Under the pieces are notes generated by a model, which was not told where the DNA came from, did no database searches, and was given only the letters and a program-made list of their open reading frames with translations. Both the position numbers and the translations under genes were made by a program. From positions 76,167 to 140,166 of the forward strand of contig CAURYE010000002.1 of the NCBI GenBank assembly GCA_963529235.1: a DNA stretch of 64,000 bases, read 5' to 3'. This document shows, piece after piece, positions 5,960-34,143 of the stretch; the first letter of the stretch is position 1; every line of letters begins with the position of its first letter. The stretch comes from an uncultured Campylobacter sp. Its GTDB lineage: Bacteria > Campylobacterota > Campylobacteria > Campylobacterales > Campylobacteraceae.

Positions 5960-8518
5960 TTAAGCAAATTTCGGATCGCTAAACGCCGTTAGCTCAGGCG
6001 CCTTGCCCGTAAATTTTTCGATATTTACAAGCGCGGTGTGGCTGATGTTGCCGTTTGCTAGCTTGCTAGTCGGGATATCGATGGTTAGGACGTTTGGCGA
6101 ACCGTTTTTGCAAAGACCCGCGTCAAATCCGTCGTACCATACGCCTTCAGCTAGCTTAACGACGCCCTCTTTGATATCTTGCGTCACCAAGGCACCCGCC
6201 AGCACTTCGCCGCGAGCGTTAAACACCCTAACCAAATCGCCGGTTTTTATGCCCTTTTTCGCGGCGTCTTTAGGGTGTATCCAGATCGGCTCACGGTTTG
6301 CGATCGCGTAGTTTTCGCGCAGAGATGTTTGGTTTAGCTGCGAGTGGAGGCGATCGGTCGGATGCGGGCTTAGCATGTGTAGCTCGGCAGGTTTATCTTT
6401 CATACCTAGCCACTCGATCGGCTCATACCACATCGGATGCGCTTTGCAGTCATTATAGCCCATTTTCTCGATGGTTTCGGAGTAAATTTCGATTAGACCG
6501 CTTGGCGTTCCTAGCGGATTTAGCACCGGGTCCTCTCTAAACTCGCCAAATCTCACCCACGTATCGCTCTCAGGCGTCGAGGCAAAAGTTACCGGCTTAT
6601 TTTCGTTCCAAAACTCCTCAAACGGCTTCATATCGGTTTCAAAATCAGGTATAGCCTTGACCTGCTCGTACGCCGCGCCGTAATACTCTTTGATCCAGTC
6701 AAATTCATCCTTGCCGTTGTCGGTGTAGGCTACGACCAAATTTTTAGCGTAGGCCTTGCAAAGGTCGGTGAAAATTTGATAATCGTCGCGCGCTTCGGCG
6801 TATTTTTCCACAACTTGCTTCATCGGCACGATGTTCATATTCGAGTAGTCGCCCGTCATCGTGACGTCGTTGCGCTCGTATGCGGTTGTGGTTGGAAATA
6901 CGATATCAGCCATCTTAGCAGTCGGCGTCCAGTATGCCTCGTTTACGACTACCGTGCGAGGTTTGCGCCACGCTTCTAGCAGGCGGTTGGTCTCTTGATG
7001 ATGGGCGAAAGGATTGCCGCCGACCCAGTAGATAAAGTCGATATCAGGATACGTGATTTTCTTGCCGTCGTGATCGATCACTTTGCCTGGATTTAGCAGA
7101 GCGTCCGCGATACGAGCGACCGGGAATGCATAGTTTGTAGCCTTTTGCAGCCAGCTTTGACCCGTACCAGCAACAGCCGCGGCTTTAGCGACGAAGCGGC
7201 CGCTTGCGTCAAATTCTCCGCTATCCGTGCCGATAAACTCGCCCTCGTCGTTAAATTTACCCACGCTTGCGCTATTTACGCCGCCGACTACAGCACCTTT
7301 GCAAGTCGGAGCGCCGCCGTTTGAGTAGTGGTAGCTAAGGCCAAAACCTCCACCCGGAAGCCCGATCTGTCCTAGCATAGCCGCCAAAGTTACCATTGCC
7401 CAGTGCGGCTGCTCACCGTGATGCGCACGCTGCATACCCCAACCGCTCATTATCATCGTGCGGTTAGCGTCGAAGGTATCTGCTAGCTCTTTGATGAGGC
7501 TTGCTTTTAGGCCGCAAATTTTGCTCGCCCACTCTAAATTTTTAGGCGTGCCGTCGGTTTTACCGAGCAGATACGGCAGGAACTTATCAAAGCCGCTCGT
7601 ATAGGTCTCGATGAAGTTTTTATCGTATTTGCCGCTCTCGTATAGGTAGTGCATCATGCCTAGCATCATCGCAGTGTCGGTGTTTGGCACCGGAGCAATC
7701 CACTGAGCCTTATCGAAGTACTGCGCCGTTTCGGTTCTTATAGGGTCGATTATTATAACCTTTATGTCGCTGCGTTTTTTTAGCTCTTCAAAGTACTTAA
7801 AGCCCTGCTCGTCGGTGCTAGTCCATGCTATGCGTAACGTTGCCATAGGATTTGCGCCCCAGATGACGACTACTTTTGAGTTTTCTAGTACCGCAGGCCA
7901 GCTAGTTTGCTGCTCGTAGACCTCGATGCTGCCCACGACGTGAGGCATGATGACCTGGCTAGCACCCGTAGAATAATCGCCTAAAGACCCAACGAATCCG
8001 CCGCTAAGATTCATAAATCTATGAAGTAAAATTCGCGAGTTATGCACGTTGCCGCTTGATTTCCAGCCGTAACTACCCGCAAACACGCCCTCTAGCCCCT
8101 TTTGTTTTCTCGTCTTTTTTAGCTCTCTAGCTACTAGTTTTATCGCATCCTCGTAGCGTACGCGCACCCACTCGTCTTTGCCTCTTAGCTCCGGTTTTGG
8201 CGAGTCCGGATTTTGCAAGTAACTTTTGCGCACCATCGGGTATTTTATGCGTGATTTATAGACCATATCGGCGGTGTAGTGCTGCAACGGATTATACACT
8301 TCGCTCGTTTTTTGAAACGGCTCTGATTTTACGATCTTGCCGTCTTTGACGCTAACTTTTAGCATGCCCCAGTGAGCAGCCGTTAGCACCTCGCCGTTAC
8401 GCACGTTTGCCGTATTTAGCTCGGCTCCGAGTAAATTTGACGCCGTTACGCTAGAAAACAAAGGAGCCGCTGCAAGCGCCGCTCCGCCTTTTAATATATT
8501 TCGTCTTTGTAGGTTCAT
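5960..8518 (-). CDS. torA: Tat-exported DMSO-reductase-family molybdoenzyme (TMAO/DMSO reductase, TorA/TorZ/DorA-like)
   Basis: 852 aa with twin-arginine signal MNLQRRNILKGGAALAAAPLF. Size and sequence are typical of bis-MGD TMAO/DMSO/biotin-sulfoxide reductases. A monohaem cytochrome c gene lies upstream on the same strand. SD AGGAGAG at 8523-8529. Confidence 0.9.
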   Translation of the reverse strand: MNLQRRNILKGGAALAAAPLFSSVTASNLLGAELNTANVRNGEVLTAAHWGMLKVSVKDGKIVKSEPFQKTSEVYNPLQHYTADMVYKSRIKYPMVRKSYLQNPDSPKPELRGKDEWVRVRYEDAIKLVARELKKTRKQKGLEGVFAGSYGWKSSGNVHNSRILLHRFMNLSGGFVGSLGDYSTGASQVIMPHVVGSIEVYEQQTSWPAVLENSKVVVIWGANPMATLRIAWTSTDEQGFKYFEELKKRSDIKVIIIDPIRTETAQYFDKAQWIAPVPNTDTAMMLGMMHYLYESGKYDKNFIETYTSGFDKFLPYLLGKTDGTPKNLEWASKICGLKASLIKELADTFDANRTMIMSGWGMQRAHHGEQPHWAMVTLAAMLGQIGLPGGGFGLSYHYSNGGAPTCKGAVVGGVNSASVGKFNDEGEFIGTDSGEFDASGRFVAKAAAVAGTGQSWLQKATNYAFPVARIADALLNPGKVIDHDGKKITYPDIDFIYWVGGNPFAHHQETNRLLEAWRKPRTVVVNEAYWTPTAKMADIVFPTTTAYERNDVTMTGDYSNMNIVPMKQVVEKYAEARDDYQIFTDLCKAYAKNLVVAYTDNGKDEFDWIKEYYGAAYEQVKAIPDFETDMKPFEEFWNENKPVTFASTPESDTWVRFGEFREDPVLNPLGTPSGLIEIYSETIEKMGYNDCKAHPMWYEPIEWLGMKDKPAELHMLSPHPTDRLHSQLNQTSLRENYAIANREPIWIHPKDAAKKGIKTGDLVRVFNARGEVLAGALVTQDIKEGVVKLAEGVWYDGFDAGLCKNGSPNVLTIDIPTSKLANGNISHTALVNIEKFTGKAPELTAFSDPKFA

Positions 8519-8530
8519 TTTTCTCTCCTA

Positions 8531-8858
8531 TTTTTACTTCTCGGTCGAACGAAGTCCGACCTACGAGCGGGAGTATAAATACTCCCTGCACCCACCTGAA
8601 GCACACCGCTTCTTTCGAAAGCGGCGTAAATTCGGCACATTTTTTCTGTTTTTACTTCTCGGTCGAACGAAGTCCGACCTACGAGCGGGAGTATAAATAC
8701 TCCCTGCACCCACCTGAAGCACACCGCTTCTTTCGAAAGCGGCGTAAATTCGGCACATTTTTTCTGTTTTTACTTCTCGGTCGAACGAGGTCCGACCTCC
8801 GAGCGGAAGCGCAAGCGCTCCCTGCACCCACCTAAAGTCCCTACTGCGTAGGGTACCC
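8531..8858 (-). repeat. tandem array of a 118-nt unit (two identical copies plus one diverged ~71-nt core copy) in the 5' leader of the reductase gene
   Basis: 8531-8648 and 8649-8766 are identical. The third copy starts at 8767 and shares the core up to about 8837. Hairpins are conserved, with compensatory substitutions in copy 3. The unit length is not a multiple of three. Confidence 0.9.
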
Positions 8859-9081
8859 TGTTAAAATTTACTTCACAAACTGGCAAAGCCGGTCTTTTGC
8901 ACGGACTCAAATTTGACCGCTCTTTAGTCCAGCGAGTCAAATTTGACGGCTAAAAGCCTCGTTCGCGCAGCCTAGCCCGCAAAGTAGTCGCTCAAATTTA
9001 GCGCGCATCTCGTCTTACGCGCTAAATTTACTATCCGCCGAACCTTCAAAATCGGCGTTTTAAAAACAGCCGCTTCGCCGC

Positions 9082-9126
9082 GAATTTTATAAAATTTAGC
9101 TCCCGCAAATCTCGTCCGTTTGCGGG
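9082..9126 (-). terminator. possible terminator after the cytochrome c gene
   Basis: Inverted repeat CCCGCAAA (9102-9109) / TTTGCGGG (9119-9126). On the minus strand it is followed by AGCUAAAUUUUAUAAAAUU, which is only moderately U-rich. Confidence 0.35.
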
Positions 9127-9167
9127 CGCGCTAGGCGTAAATCTTCGTCAAATTTACGCGCCGCTTT

Positions 9168-9746
9168 TTATTTTTTCGCCACGTTCACGTCGGCAGAGTG
9201 CTTTTGCAAGTACTGTATCACCAGCCACTCGTCGTCTTTGCCGATCGCCGTTCGCGCGATCATCGATTTTAGCAGGTTAGGCCACTGATTTGCCTTGTAG
9301 TGCGTGGTTTGATGCAGCGAATGGCACGCTCCGCAGCTCTCTTTGTAAAGCTCGCCGCCCTTAGCAAAAAGCCCGCCTAGATCGCTCGTAAAGCCGTCTT
9401 TTTGCGCATAGACCACGGTCTCGACCTCGTCCCATTTGCCGTTTGCGCCCTTTTTCACGACCTTTATATCAGGCGTCGCAGTTTTGGCAAACGCCACGGC
9501 GATGACGCGCTCGGAGTCACTAAAATAAACAACGTTGCTAACGGCGGGATTTTGGTAGCCTTTGACGGAGATTTTCACGCGGTCGCCCTCGTTCGCTAGT
9601 ATTTTTACGGCATTAGTCGGCAAGAGCCTGCCTATGCTTTTTTGCGACGTCGCGTCGGCGTAAACGTCTTTTACCGACGGGCTGTACACCTCGCCCGTCG
9701 CAAATAGCGAACAGGCGAGCAAGCTTGATAGTAGGATTTTTTTCAT
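9168..9746 (-). CDS. periplasmic monohaem c-type cytochrome (probable electron donor to the TorA-like reductase)
   Basis: 192 aa with signal peptide MKKILLSSLLACSLFATG and a single CGACH haem-binding motif near the C-terminus. It sits upstream of the molybdoenzyme on the same strand. Confidence 0.85.
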   Translation of the reverse strand: MKKILLSSLLACSLFATGEVYSPSVKDVYADATSQKSIGRLLPTNAVKILANEGDRVKISVKGYQNPAVSNVVYFSDSERVIAVAFAKTATPDIKVVKKGANGKWDEVETVVYAQKDGFTSDLGGLFAKGGELYKESCGACHSLHQTTHYKANQWPNLLKSMIARTAIGKDDEWLVIQYLQKHSADVNVAKK

Positions 9747-10018: not shown

Positions 10019-10945
10019 CTACTCCGCGCTATAGCTTGAGAGCATATCAAAAGTAGGCGCGAAAAATAGCGCTCCGGTGATCGGCGTGCTAAAATCAAGT
10101 AGTCTATCGGAGTTGCCGTGCGGCTCGCCGATAAACATCTTATTTAGCATCGCTTCAAGCGTCGAAAACGTGCTAGCGTACGCGATAAAGTACGTTCCCG
10201 TCACGCTTCCCTCGACAAAAGGCATATTTCCGCGAACGACTTTTTTATCGTCGCCCACGTTTGCCGCAGCCGAGTGCGAATTGCTAGGCTTTTCATCCTC
10301 ACTCATCTCGATGTCGTCTGCTTTCGTGCGGCCGATGACCTTTTCTTGCTCGCTCACGCTAGTTGCGTTCCACTCTCTCATTTTGTGTTTATATTTTTGT
10401 ACGAACACGTAGCTTCCGCCCTTAAATTTCGCATCCTCGTCGCCGACTTTGGCAAAAAAGTCCCTATCCTCGCCGTTTGGATTTTCCGTGCCGTCTACAA
10501 AACCGATGATGGCCCTGCCGTCGTGGTATTTAAAACCCTGGGTTTCGTCTGCGAGCTTGGCAAATTTAAAAAGCTCGGCCTTTACGTTTTGCGCCATATC
10601 AAAGCAGTCCGCCGCATCAAGCGCTCTAATATGCACGTGGATATCGCCCGCGGTGCTCACGGCTTCGTGCTTGTCGCCTTTTATCGCTTTAAAATTTACA
10701 AGCTCTTTTGGCAGCGGTTGCGGGAGTCCTAGTTTTAGCCACGCGTCGTGCCCGACGGCGATAACGCAGTTTACGTTCGCCTCCGCGCCAAACCTTACTT
10801 TAGCCGTTTTGTTTAAATTTACCACCAAAGCGCAAAGCCTCTCAAAGCCCTTTTTACAGGCGTTTTCGTCGCCGCTTAGCAGCCAAGTTTGAAAGACGGT
10901 GTTATTACCCGGCGCCTGCGTTACTTCTTGCGAATTTATTTGCAT
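10019..10945 (-). CDS. Dyp-type (dye-decolourising) haem peroxidase, cytoplasmic YfeX/EfeB-like
   Basis: 308 aa with the GFVDGTENP motif characteristic of DyP peroxidases. No signal peptide. Confidence 0.88.
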   Translation of the reverse strand: MQINSQEVTQAPGNNTVFQTWLLSGDENACKKGFERLCALVVNLNKTAKVRFGAEANVNCVIAVGHDAWLKLGLPQPLPKELVNFKAIKGDKHEAVSTAGDIHVHIRALDAADCFDMAQNVKAELFKFAKLADETQGFKYHDGRAIIGFVDGTENPNGEDRDFFAKVGDEDAKFKGGSYVFVQKYKHKMREWNATSVSEQEKVIGRTKADDIEMSEDEKPSNSHSAAANVGDDKKVVRGNMPFVEGSVTGTYFIAYASTFSTLEAMLNKMFIGEPHGNSDRLLDFSTPITGALFFAPTFDMLSSYSAE

Positions 10946-33214: not shown

Positions 33215-33481
33215 ATGAAAAAGTTAGCTTTAGTTGCGCTTAGCGCTTTGTTCGTTACAGGTTCTATCTTTGCCGCCGAGATGAAAGGCGATATGATGGA
33301 GAAAAAAGATACCATGATGGAAAAAAAGGACGCCATGATGGAAAAAAAGGACGCCATGATGGAGAAAAAAGACGATATGATGATAAAAAAGGACGCCATG
33401 AAGGGCGACATGAAAGAGATGAAAGACGATATGGGTAAAAAGAAAGACGATATGAAAGACATGAAAAAGGATAAGATGTAA
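33215..33481 (+). CDS. secreted Met/Lys/Asp-rich repeat protein (MMEKKDx heptads; reminiscent of MXKDX-repeat proteins)
   Basis: AAAGGAG SD and signal peptide MKKLALVALSALFVTGSIFA. The mature 68 aa contain 18 Met and no Cys or His. The stop overlaps the start of the response regulator (TAATG). Confidence 0.7.
   Translation: MKKLALVALSALFVTGSIFAAEMKGDMMEKKDTMMEKKDAMMEKKDAMMEKKDDMMIKKDAMKGDMKEMKDDMGKKKDDMKDMKKDKM
33293..33397 (+). repeat. five in-frame tandem 21-nt repeats (ATGATGGAAAAAAAGGACGCC-like)
   Basis: Units start at 33293, 33314, 33335, 33356 and 33377. Units 2 and 3 are identical. Confidence 0.95.
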
Positions 33482-34143
33482 TGACGCAAATTTTGCTCGT
33501 AGAGGACGATGAGACGCTAAGCGAACTCATCAGCGAGTATCTGAGCGAACAAGGCTATGACGTGACAGTTCGCGCCGATGCTAAAGCAGCTCTAGATACC
33601 GCCTACGAGCGAAATTTTGATATCCTCATCCTCGACGTCAAGCTACCTAAAGGCGACGGTTTCTCCCTTTTGCGCGAACTTAGGCGGCTTGGCGACGACA
33701 CTCCTGCGATCTTTACCACCTCGCTAAACGCGCTGCAAGACCTAGAGATCGGCTACAAAAGCGGCTGCGACGACTACCTAAAAAAGCCGTACGAGCTAAA
33801 AGAGCTTTTGCTTCGTATTCAAATTTTAATCAAGCGCAAATTTTCTCACGTAAATAACGAATTTATCGAGCTTAATGGCGGATATAAATTTTATCCAAGC
33901 TCCAAAACGCTCCGGCAAAACGGGCAAATCGTAAGCCTCTCAAACAAAGAAAGCGAGCTTTTGTCGCTATTTTTGGAAAATAAAAACGCGCTGCTTAGCA
34001 AAGAGGCGATATTTGAGAAAATTTGGAACTACGGCGAAGAGCCCAGCGAGCTGAGCCTGCGAGTTTACGTCAAAAACTTACGCCGCATTTTAGGCAAGGA
34101 CGCGATCATAAATAGGCGCGGCGACGGCTATATCTATGTCTGA
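33481..34143 (+). CDS. OmpR-family response regulator
   Basis: Receiver domain (ILLVEDDETL ... ILILDVKLP) plus a winged-helix domain (LSNKESELLSLFLEN ... LRVYVKNLRRIL). Confidence 0.92.
   Translation: MTQILLVEDDETLSELISEYLSEQGYDVTVRADAKAALDTAYERNFDILILDVKLPKGDGFSLLRELRRLGDDTPAIFTTSLNALQDLEIGYKSGCDDYLKKPYELKELLLRIQILIKRKFSHVNNEFIELNGGYKFYPSSKTLRQNGQIVSLSNKESELLSLFLENKNALLSKEAIFEKIWNYGEEPSELSLRVYVKNLRRILGKDAIINRRGDGYIYV

Follow-up and report, generated by a model that had tools for sequence, protein, structure and literature searches.

In this work, we analysed the tandem array that fills the leader of a torA-like gene in a 64-kb window of Campylobacter DNA, the window being the whole stretch under study. 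Judged by sequence and covariance-model comparison, the 118-nt units of this array are homologous to the rRNA leaders of other Campylobacter, and their helices are structured at the RNA level. The explanation that we favour, tentatively and as a little short of probable, is that a 5' leader module of the pre-rRNA type has been co-opted as a cis-acting RNA element defining or protecting the 5' end of the torA mRNA; its mode of action at torA is one that we infer. Literature searches returned no previous description of either the array or the module.

The gene downstream of the array encodes a member of the TorA/BisC family (NCBIfam TIGR00509, 1085 bits) with the Pfam domains Molybdopterin, Molydop_binding, Molybdopterin_N and TAT_signal, and its upstream partner is a cytochrome c gene whose product resembles the C-terminal part of TorC. 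As the earlier note had it, the array abuts the Shine-Dalgarno sequence of the minus-strand reductase gene, which could be read as such ahead of an ATG at 8518-8516. The part of the intergenic spacer that lies beyond the array (8929-9167) has no similarity to rRNA leaders, and a consensus scan called neither a promoter nor a terminator in it. The terminator-like hairpin that had been noticed after the cytochrome gene (9102-9126), as a possible sign of separate torA control, is present, is conserved among strains and is followed by a TATAAA-type, -10-like sequence, but it fails the U-tract rule of the terminator scan, which returned no terminator-like site on the minus strand between 8300 and 10100. 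Three other readings of the spacer were tried and rejected: a promoter within the units (there is no sigma-70 consensus in the spacer, and the TATA-like loop of the P1 hairpin is missing from other P1 alleles); an upstream open reading frame coupled to torA through an AUGA overlap, which is not conserved, since it is open for anything from 6 to 84 codons depending on the strain; and the remnant of a decayed gene, for which blastx against TorA and the TorA paralog gave no match. ARAGORN found no tRNA or tmRNA in the window.

Tandem Repeats Finder delimited the array at 8531-8837, with a period of 118, 2.6 copies, 94% matches and a score of 544. Direct comparison bore out the exact identity that had been claimed for the first two units (Table 1), as well as the divergence of the third after its core, where 10 mismatches in the first 71 nt are followed by 33 in the other 47. 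A 28-nt core pattern, searched with up to three mismatches, occurs three times in the window and in none of 100 shuffles.

Table 1. Features of the torA leader and its flanking genes, with positions in the window
Feature	Position	Strand	Evidence or remark
torA-like gene for a Tat-exported molybdopterin S/N-oxide reductase, 852 aa	5960-8518	-	Pfam and NCBIfam
Shine-Dalgarno AGGAGAG of torA	8523-8529	-	1 base (T at 8530) past the A-rich tail of the last unit
Unit 1, torA-proximal, complete 118-nt module	8531-8648	-	model R1 match at 8532-8602, 93.9 bits
Unit 1, A-rich tail GAAGUAAAAA	8531-8540	-	
Unit 1, P2	8540-8567	-	CUC/GAG plus 8-bp stem
Unit 1, P1	8567-8589	-	
Unit 1, single-stranded AGGUGGGU	8590-8597	-	
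Unit 1, P0 hairpin	8606-8624	-	
Unit 2, same sequence as Unit 1	8649-8766	-	R1 match at 8650-8720, 93.9 bits
Unit 2, A-rich tail	8649-8658	-	
Unit 2, P2	8658-8685	-	
Unit 2, P1	8685-8707	-	
Unit 2, AGGUGGGU	8708-8715	-	
Unit 2, P0	8724-8742	-	
Unit 3	8767-8858	-	core 8768-8838; R1 match, 91.7 bits
Unit 3, P2	8776-8803	-	
Unit 3, P1	8803-8825	-	CGC/GCG allele
Unit 3, hairpin in the P0 position, of a different type	8839-8853	-	CCCUAC-GCA-GUAGGG; recurs in other strains
Degenerate partial fourth unit	8866-8928	-	R1 match, 26.3 bits, E = 8e-4
Fourth unit, decayed 23S-type P2	8877-8895	-	AGACCGGC UUU GCCAGUUU
Fourth unit, tail GAAGUAAAUUUU		-	
Rest of the cytochrome c-torA spacer	8929-9167	-	81-95% identity among showae-group strains
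Cytochrome c gene, product similar to the end of TorC	9168-9746	-	NCBIfam TIGR02162, 112 bits, C-terminal part

On the sense strand, each unit runs 5' to 3' from the P0 hairpin through the single-stranded CUUYAGGUGGGU to P1, a hairpin with a GGGAG/CUYCC base, a 2-bp extension and a bulged A, then to P2, an 8-bp hairpin with a UUY loop enclosed by a short outer helix, and ends in the A-rich tail; predicted folds resolve it into three independent serial hairpins without a junction. Between the units of the window, the P1 hairpin reads GGGAGUAU/AUACUCCC or GGGAGCGC/GCGCUUCC, with three pairs exchanged on both arms plus one G-U pair, while the second helix is retained and two different hairpins are found upstream of the cores, all as first described. 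P0, P1 and P2 all change by compensatory substitutions. A structural alignment of 29 distinct units has 491 canonical cells among 500 (98%) when read in the sense orientation, compared with 452 of 500 (90%) in the antisense orientation, and with the partners in it shuffled, 388 cells were canonical on average and never more than 410. Seven of the eight P2 pairs change on both sides in an alignment made with the model, with 97.9% of the cells paired; the covariation score of this helix is 0.467 versus 0.218 when shuffled (0.467 was reached in none of 500 shuffles), and registers slid along the alignment gave at most 0.131. Furthermore, sense folds are 5-10 kcal/mol better than antisense folds in most units, the array region folds with a z-score of -5.6 relative to shuffles, and both the minimum-free-energy and the centroid predictions leave the Shine-Dalgarno sequence and the A-rich tail without pairing partners. 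Almost every one of the 29 distinct units, which come from three lineages, has the same motif AGGUGGGU, also predicted to be unpaired; one degenerate unit reads AGGUGGAU. On two points the view of the earlier note is upheld: the element adjoins the torA Shine-Dalgarno sequence, and it is a structured RNA in the orientation of the gene, with helices kept by compensatory changes and sense-specific G-U pairs.

We built a covariance model, R1, from the units, comprising the single-stranded AGGUGGGU, P1, P2 and the A-rich tail. Across 310 kb of Campylobacter loci, its full-length matches (67-95 bits) fall at four kinds of site only, namely 5' of 16S rRNA, of 23S rRNA, of torA and of a torA paralog, and are sense-oriented throughout; no strong match turned up in 866 kb of control sequence. 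Compared with the window units in Table 1, 16S leaders score 80-84 bits and 23S leaders 70-81 bits; three sequences outside model building (L174, L176 and L177) reach 73-75 bits, and further 23S leaders were retrieved by way of spurious antisense reading frames that span the 23S start. In C. gracilis, a complete genome included, mature 16S and mature 23S are each immediately preceded by the module, and in a second Campylobacter lineage the module lies 5' of 23S; according to Rfam, the 16S and 23S starts of L083 and L119 stand immediately past it, and the distance from the end of the module to the mature 16S or 23S start is 1-20 nt overall. The placement before the torA paralog is the same as at torA. 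Pairwise comparison by blastn points the same way: a 23S-type torA unit is 91% identical to a 23S leader over 69 nt (E = 8e-21), the degenerate fourth unit is 87% identical to a 23S leader over 31 nt, and the proximal unit of the window together with the Shine-Dalgarno sequence is 72% identical to a 16S leader and 16S start over 81 nt (E = 4e-6). This last alignment continues past the 16S start of L119 by about 10 nt, and AAAAAUAGGAGAG at the torA Shine-Dalgarno sequence aligns with AAAUAUGGAGAG at the 16S 5' end. The link to rRNA is drawn from sister lineages. Within the pre-rRNA, the module is located inside the leader-trailer helix, in the 5' extension that is to be removed after RNase III cleavage. 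That the module itself takes part in leader-trailer pairing was considered and discarded, the true 23S leader-trailer helix using an upstream GGAAGUAAUGCG segment; at torA, no complement of the module was found downstream of the gene, and unrestricted duplex predictions were no better than shuffles and are uninformative.

Only loci of the C. showae/massiliensis group carry the array, which is an insertion there. The gap between the cytochrome c gene and torA is 9-10 nt in C. concisus and C. rectus-type loci and 113 nt in one lineage, and as these C. concisus and C. rectus-type loci have the same gene pair and lack the module, the module is not needed for TorA function. Each showae-group strain has between one and four mosaic units, near-identical strains carrying two or three, and Unit 2 is absent from several of them. 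The spacer measures 531 nt at L040, L041, L043 and L045 and 649 nt at L039, L042 and L044; strains with an identical cytochrome c protein and otherwise matching spacers are exactly one 118-nt unit apart. In several strains, the torA-proximal unit has its P1 replaced by an insert of 100-150 nt or carries a wholly different P2, and partial units and units with mismatches also occur at torA. From the sequences compared, the tandem arrangement appears to be a polymorphism with no fixed design. All of the approximately 25 showae-group loci examined keep at least one unit at the Shine-Dalgarno sequence, which follows the unit end directly or after up to about 10 extra nt (L038), and the array has been lost in none. 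Against a function at torA, the array is polymorphic and partly degenerate, as a neutral repeat would look, and gene conversion from rRNA operons could keep units intact without selection at torA.

Our explanation brings these elements together as follows. Each 118-nt repeat would be one full copy of a cis-acting RNA module which, in related Campylobacter, is a normal part of the pre-rRNA, between the leader-trailer processing helix and the mature 5' ends. An ancestor of the C. showae/massiliensis group would have gained copies of it between the cytochrome c gene and torA, probably with an insertion junction at GGAGA, which is common to the 16S 5' end and the torA ribosome-binding site, and unequal recombination would then have given the one to four mosaic copies seen in each strain. 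The module would act on the transcript as a 5'-end-defining element: the precursor may be cut in the unpaired A-rich tail, in the linkers or in both, and the stable hairpins just upstream of a free Shine-Dalgarno sequence may protect the RNA that follows against 5'-to-3' decay. How much torA mRNA there is and how long it lasts would thereby be uncoupled from the cytochrome c message, presumably with no ligand sensing and with the tandem copy number as a by-product, not a regulatory design. It is also conceivable, although we regard it as rather unlikely, that the module is the signal through which the nuclease producing the mature 5' ends of 16S and 23S in Campylobacterota recognises or enters its substrate, and that C. 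showae has co-opted the module to excise the mRNAs of torA and its paralog from a longer transcript and stabilise them, in which case separate RNAs of about 118 nt would be set free from the tandem copies. Were this true, the torA leader would be a dispensable reporter, naturally variable in copy number, for an essential step of rRNA maturation. For H. pylori, it is not known which nucleases produce the mature 5' ends of 16S and 23S; the species lacks RNase E/G and Mini-III, RNase J reportedly plays no part, and a 5' end that forms independently of RNase III has been mapped 5-7 nt before mature 23S (PMC6582327).

The earlier note had seen in the array a tandem riboswitch or another ligand-sensing leader, responding perhaps to a molybdenum/tungsten cofactor or to an electron acceptor. 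Such a reading is invited by a molybdoenzyme gene whose leader carries a covarying structured RNA in tandem copies, an arrangement shared by some riboswitches, but we consider it hardly credible. The cmscan comparison that had been proposed, with the Moco motif RF01055 in mind (Rfam 15, window positions 8300-9300, E up to 10), gave nothing in the array, its sole match being RT-12 outside it (E = 6.9), and five other arrays gave nothing in Rfam 15 at E up to 1. Besides, the units have neither a multi-stem junction nor a terminator, the Shine-Dalgarno sequence is free instead of sequestered, P1 or P2 of the gene-proximal unit has been swapped wholesale in some strains, which a ligand pocket would not tolerate, and a cofactor sensor would be out of place before 16S and 23S rRNA, where the same module stands. 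Very improbable, too, is an element working at the DNA level, whether the operator of a regulator or a mobile MITE/REP-like repeat targeting TTAC/GAAGTAA-type sites. Palindromes could form on either strand, GAAGTAAAAA recurs at every unit junction, and in the 23S leader direct repeats of GAAGTAA stand on either side of the stretch with the module; against this, both arms of the palindromes change sequence, by which a sequence-specific dimer site would be lost, and the G-U pairs make the helices strand-specific. Nor does the distribution of the copies fit a REP/MITE-type repeat scattered in both orientations, every copy found being in the sense orientation at the four kinds of site: no module or sub-module was found elsewhere in the 64-kb window at up to 20% mismatches, the P2 pattern occurred at the torA locus only in 12 Campylobacter genomes (one per species), and plasmid collections, phage collections and viral contigs contained no module match. 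A metagenome scan with a loosened pattern returned at least 120 rows, mostly chance matches, and gives no grounds for denying the module other contexts.

A more serious contender, though still somewhat unlikely, is that the array is a neutral passenger, i.e. a fragment of an rRNA leader pasted in by illegitimate recombination which has become a variable-number tandem repeat without function at torA, its hairpins being kept mainly by gene conversion from rRNA operons. The complete identity of two units in the window, one of which is missing from strains with an identical cytochrome c protein, the mosaic, partial and decayed units with their large inserts, and the relatives that do without the array are all in its favour; moreover, the torA DNA is 93-95% identical among showae-group strains, so that the conservation of unpaired motifs within the group says little and divergence there is too low for conservation to show selection. 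What speaks against neutrality is the retention of a unit abutting the Shine-Dalgarno sequence at every showae-group locus examined, the same placement before the torA paralog, and changes in torA units that preserve pairing by sense-specific wobbles and the like (U-G in L006, C-G to U-A in L016). Two further possibilities give the module a function other than the one we favour. The unpaired, Shine-Dalgarno-like AGGUGG(GU) might hold a 30S subunit or a pre-rRNA-binding protein and so stabilise the mRNA, in which case tandem copies would multiply the binding sites; the STAB-SD concept of a 5' stabiliser reportedly goes back to the work of Agaisse and Lereclus on cryIIIA in 1996. The near-invariance of AGGUGGGU across lineages and the complementarity of AGGUG to CACCU at the 16S 3' end in L083 agree with such binding, which we judge improbable given an anti-Shine-Dalgarno match of only 5-6 bp, a motif that stands before 23S as well as 16S, where it has no obvious ribosome-docking role, and no candidate protein identified. 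We think it equally improbable that the module is an elongation element, either a boxA/boxC-type site for Nus factors composed of a boxB-like P0, UGUGCUUUAGG and the GU-rich GGUGGGUG, or a G-rich folded spacer that denies Rho access to the long untranslated intergenic region. The order of hairpin, CUUUA motif and GU-rich motif does resemble the boxB-boxA-boxC sequences of E. coli rrn operons, which served for comparison together with boxA consensus sequences of the type GCUCUUUAACAA or UGUUCUUUGAAAAC. With a C/G ratio of 0.70, the sense strand of the array does not favour the loading of Rho; like boxA, the module is found in the rRNA leader as well as in the 16S-23S spacer, and boxA is known to act in an mRNA leader, that of suhB, where this rRNA-leader element is reused (PMC12360218). 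On the other hand, CUUYA alone is conserved (the identical units of the window have CUUCA), and units with the other P0 lack UGUGC. We rejected boxA as the main reading because the same C. gracilis operons have much better boxA-like sequences further upstream, in the leader (AAUCUUUGAAAUCUAAAC) and in the spacer (CGUUCUUUAAAGUACC), beside the leader-trailer helices.

Co-option of a pre-rRNA-type module as a 5'-end element of torA would have partial parallels in known systems. The module is physically part of the C. gracilis-type 16S leader and 16S-23S spacer; like boxA, it occurs once before each large rRNA, and its reappearance in an mRNA leader recalls that of boxA before suhB. Unlike the leader-trailer helix and the best boxA match, both of which are further upstream in the same operons, it is placed directly against the mature 5' ends, belongs to no Rfam family and has no described role in rRNA maturation, and at torA it differs from rrn elements also in being tandemly repeated and strain-variable. 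Gram-positive 5' stabilisers, such as the stem-loops of ermC and aprE and the STAB-SD of cryIIIA, block 5'-to-3' decay of the RNase J type. The torA leader has in common with them stable hairpins and an unpaired Shine-Dalgarno-like motif above an accessible ribosome-binding site, and the comparison fits a host from a phylum with RNase J and without RNase E; in contrast to them, the torA module derives from rRNA leaders and is repeated, and stabilisation here is putative. With the REP/BIME arrays of enterobacteria, for example in malE-malF, the torA array shares the form of a mosaic cluster of stable hairpins between two genes of one transcription unit, varying between strains in copy number and composition, and as REP/BIME elements stabilise the flanking mRNA, a likewise differential stability of mRNA segments is a plausible effect at torA. 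REPs, however, number in the hundreds, lie dispersed in either orientation and are associated with RAYT transposases, whereas the torA module was found solely in rRNA and torA-type leaders, each time sense-oriented and right against the start of the RNA that follows. The resemblance to the Moco RNA motif and to tandem riboswitches is limited to structured, tandem leader RNA upstream of a molybdoenzyme gene, the torA array having no match to them in sequence or structure, no junction or expression platform, replaceable helices and copies before rRNAs.

Altogether, a plausible-looking riboswitch candidate gives way to a better-supported identity. What is new is a structured module with covariation support, placed in several Campylobacter lineages right where mature 16S and mature 23S begin; in this phylum, the enzymes finishing the 5' ends of the large rRNAs are not known (PMC6582327). 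The recruitment of rRNA-leader sequence into an mRNA leader, as suggested here, would be an unusual case. With one to four copies before a non-essential respiratory gene, the torA locus offers a natural and genetically tractable test bed, in which candidate functions of the module such as processing, protection from RNase J or RNase Y, and antitermination are testable. The array also provides a ready variable-repeat marker for strains of the C. showae group.

The spacer between torA and the upstream cytochrome c gene carries an array whose coordinates, with those of the other features, are collected in the table. The earlier note had described two identical 118-nt copies and a diverging third, which both Tandem Repeats Finder and direct comparison bear out; the third copy differs at 10 of its first 71 positions and at 33 of the other 47. 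The hairpins and compensatory exchanges claimed there are likewise all present in the window units. Three matches to a core pattern lie in the window, against none in shuffles, and the array region folds with z = -5.6 relative to shuffled sequence.

Features of the window and of retrieved Campylobacter loci (L numbers)
Feature	Position	Strand	Remarks
torA-like ORF	5960-8518	-	852-aa Tat-signal molybdopterin S/N-oxide reductase, TorA/BisC family
ATG	8518-8516	-	torA start
AGGAGAG	8529-8523	-	one base past array end
Proximal unit and torA start	8505-8597	-	MFE fold
Tandem array	8531-8837		period 118, 2.6 copies, 94% matches
Identical copies	8531-8648, 8649-8766		
Decayed fourth unit	8866-8928	-	23S type; found with the covariance model
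RT-12 RNA match	8993-9089	-	15.9 bits, E = 6.9, gathering score 44.2
AGCUAAAUUUUAUAAAAUU	~9085-9100	-	weak terminator tail; holds TATAAA
Hairpin CCCGCAAA...UUUGCGGG	9102-9126	-	conserved; after cytochrome gene
Cytochrome c gene	9168-9746	-	resembles C-terminal part of TorC
Dyp-type peroxidase	10019-10945		
88-aa ORF	33215-33481	+	
OmpR-type response-regulator gene	33481-34143	+	
torA paralog loci	L038:75-2021, L153:203-2704		showae group
Kinase/regulator loci	L033:401-2310, L036:300-2209, L046:1-527		C. rectus type and one showae-group strain
Spurious antisense proteins	L083:5962-6177, L083:8535-8903	-	
16S-23S spacer	L083:8380-8610, L171		C. gracilis

The 118-nt period is one complete module. 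From 5' to 3' this comprises a short flank resembling AAUUUACG, then P0 (a hairpin), UGUGCUUY or its equivalent, and AGGUGGGU, a motif left unpaired. There follow P1, whose base is GGGAG/CUYCC and whose top varies, with a 2-bp extension that carries a bulged A; a linker; and P2, in which an 8-bp stem with a UUY loop sits inside a short outer helix. Last comes the tail GAGAAGUA or GCGAAGUA, which runs into A-rich sequence. Two subtypes were distinguished: the 16S type, with GCA...GC around P1 and CUC/GAG around P2, and the 23S type, with CGA...CG and UCGY/GCGA at the same positions. Both occur in torA arrays, the three full units of the window being of the 16S type.

This module is a strand-specific structure at the RNA level. 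In a structural alignment of 29 distinct units, 491/500 pair cells are canonical in the sense orientation versus 452/500 in antisense, and shuffled partners give a mean of 388 (maximum 410). In the model-made alignment, seven of the eight P2 pairs change on both sides with 97.9% of cells paired, and the covariation score is 0.467 versus 0.218 for shuffles (0/500 reach 0.467), slid registers giving no more than 0.131. The P1 values from this alignment are lower, since the two subtypes cannot be aligned in a single register. For most units the sense strand folds more stably than the antisense strand, by 5-10 kcal/mol. A DNA-level operator or a mobile element is unlikely.

A ligand-sensing riboswitch, entertained in the earlier note, is very unlikely. 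The Rfam scan suggested there, run with Rfam 15 in E-value mode, returned zero matches on the window array or on those of five other strains, the predicted folds consist of three separate hairpins per unit with the A-rich tail and the Shine-Dalgarno unpaired, and no U-tract follows the sense-strand hairpins of the array. ARAGORN found no tRNA-like gene, and no conserved upstream ORF precedes torA. Neither the array nor the module is described in Rfam or, as far as could be searched, in the literature. The weak RT-12 match within the spacer is taken as noise. In the MFE fold of the proximal unit with the torA start, a helix between the invariant motif (GUGGGU) and codons 2-4 (ACCUAC) closes off a region that holds P1, P2 and the ribosome-binding site. 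This helix is only 6 bp long, and the ensemble frequency of the fold is low.

A loose scan of metagenomes for the two invariant motifs revealed at least four contigs with the module away from torA, where it directly precedes both the 16S and the 23S rRNA genes, the Rfam-assigned rRNA starts coming right after it; other mRNA contexts of the module may also exist. These operons belong to C. gracilis, as a neighbouring gene shows, and the complete genome CP085963.1 has the same arrangement. Spurious antisense ORFs spanning the 23S start and the module, ending LPLPT or LPQPT, served as a search handle and gave further 23S leaders, including one from another Campylobacter lineage with a different P2 stem. 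Such proteins over rRNA 5' ends, some ending LPAPT, sit in public protein sets and are a convenient means of locating the module where data lack annotation. By blastn, a 23S-type torA unit matches a 23S leader at 91% over 69 nt (E = 8e-21), and the proximal unit of the window matches a 16S leader at 72% over 81 nt (E = 4e-6). The units are homologous to pre-rRNA 5' flanks, as these alignments support, such flanks being seen in C. gracilis and one further Campylobacter lineage. The 16S alignment extends into the first ~10 nt of 16S, so that AAAAAUAGGAGAG, from the ribosome-binding region of torA, falls opposite AAAUAUGGAGAG at the 16S 5' end; since torA is already preceded by AAGGAGAAAAA in C. 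rectus-type loci, the shared GGAGA looks like microhomology through which a piece of an rRNA leader was joined in.

In C. gracilis, the long leader-trailer helices are located upstream, hundreds of nt from 16S and ~190 nt from 23S, as are good boxA-like sequences; the module occupies the last ~70-120 nt ahead of each mature 5' end. The module is therefore part of the 5' extension that RNase III cleavage leaves behind. Helicobacter pylori is without RNase E/G and Mini-III, RNase J reportedly plays no part in making these ends, its final rRNA 5' maturation enzymes have not been identified, and an RNase III-independent 5' end lies 5-7 nt before its mature 23S (Iost et al., PMC6582327). In the C. 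gracilis 16S-23S spacer, GAAGTAA direct repeats bracket a stretch including the module and may be a trace of its entry.

A P2-pattern scan with one genome per species gave one match in each of 12 Campylobacter genomes and ~20 chance matches in unrelated phyla. All 12 Campylobacter matches are the orthologous torA locus (TorA 96-98% identical), and TorA cluster names place the window organism in the C. showae/C. massiliensis group. Between the cytochrome c gene and torA, C. concisus and one C. rectus-named lineage have 9-10 nt, C. rectus proper has 113 nt containing unrelated hairpins, and the showae group, array included, has 446-790 nt. Because the C. concisus and C. rectus-type loci have short gaps and no unit detectable by the model, the array-bearing spacer is a showae-group-specific insertion. 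The torA array is confined to this one clade, and its copy number and mosaic make-up are polymorphic: arrays hold one to four units with several P1 alleles, two P2 families and at least three kinds of upstream hairpin, and in some units P1 is swapped for a 100-150-nt insert. Strains with a cytochrome c protein identical to that of the window have a spacer of 649 nt (identical to the window) or of 531 nt, exactly one 118-nt unit fewer, an apparent two- versus three-copy difference drawn from metagenome assemblies with k = 119-141. The placement of the module against the downstream RNA start is fixed; in one strain a torA paralog replaces the cytochrome gene upstream and the array still abuts torA.

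The paralog (65% identical) lies directly upstream of torA in some showae-group strains, with the array between the two and more units ahead of the paralog. In C. rectus-type loci, a histidine kinase and an OmpR-type regulator directly precede the cytochrome c-torA pair; their place is taken in the window by a Dyp-type peroxidase, upstream of which one showae-group strain carries a split response regulator.

As a riboswitch candidate the array would be an ordinary finding; what is unexpected is tandem, strain-variable copies of a pre-rRNA module ahead of a respiratory gene. We rate it with known kinds, namely structured cis-acting leader elements and rRNA-leader signals reused in mRNAs. Our tentative reading, to which we give somewhat less than even chances, is that the module works in cis at the transcript level, defining and/or protecting the torA mRNA 5' end: cleavage would fall within the unpaired A-rich tail, the hairpins would block 5'-to-3' decay, and torA would thereby be uncoupled from the cytochrome c message. 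The main rival, a tolerated recombining passenger kept intact through gene conversion from rRNA operons, is favoured by the relatives that function without an array and by the 93-95% identity of torA DNA among showae-group strains; however, the last unit is retained in every strain examined, and we hold this explanation to be rather improbable. Lesser weight goes to a stabiliser that would bind ribosomes or a protein through AGGUGG, which resembles a Shine-Dalgarno sequence, and to a role of the Nus/boxA type or as a shield against Rho, the Nus/boxA type having a precedent in boxA, an rRNA-leader signal reused in the suhB leader (PMC12360218). The torA array gives experimental access to rRNA 5' maturation in Campylobacterota.

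Elsewhere in the spacer, the conserved hairpin after the cytochrome gene and the -10-like TATAAA next to it might serve torA as an internal terminator-promoter pair. The spacer also has five YAAATTTGAS-like sites, and AAATTT-containing 8-mers, among them AAATTTAA, AAATTTGA and TAAATTTG, each have 60-135 occurrences in 1-64000 versus 2-4 expected by base composition, an excess that might be related to the RAATTY methylation of Campylobacter. Finally, the N-terminus encoded by the 88-aa ORF resembles a signal peptide and leads into tandem repeats of 21 nt (7 aa; KKDAMME and variants); the stop of this ORF overlaps the start of the response-regulator gene.
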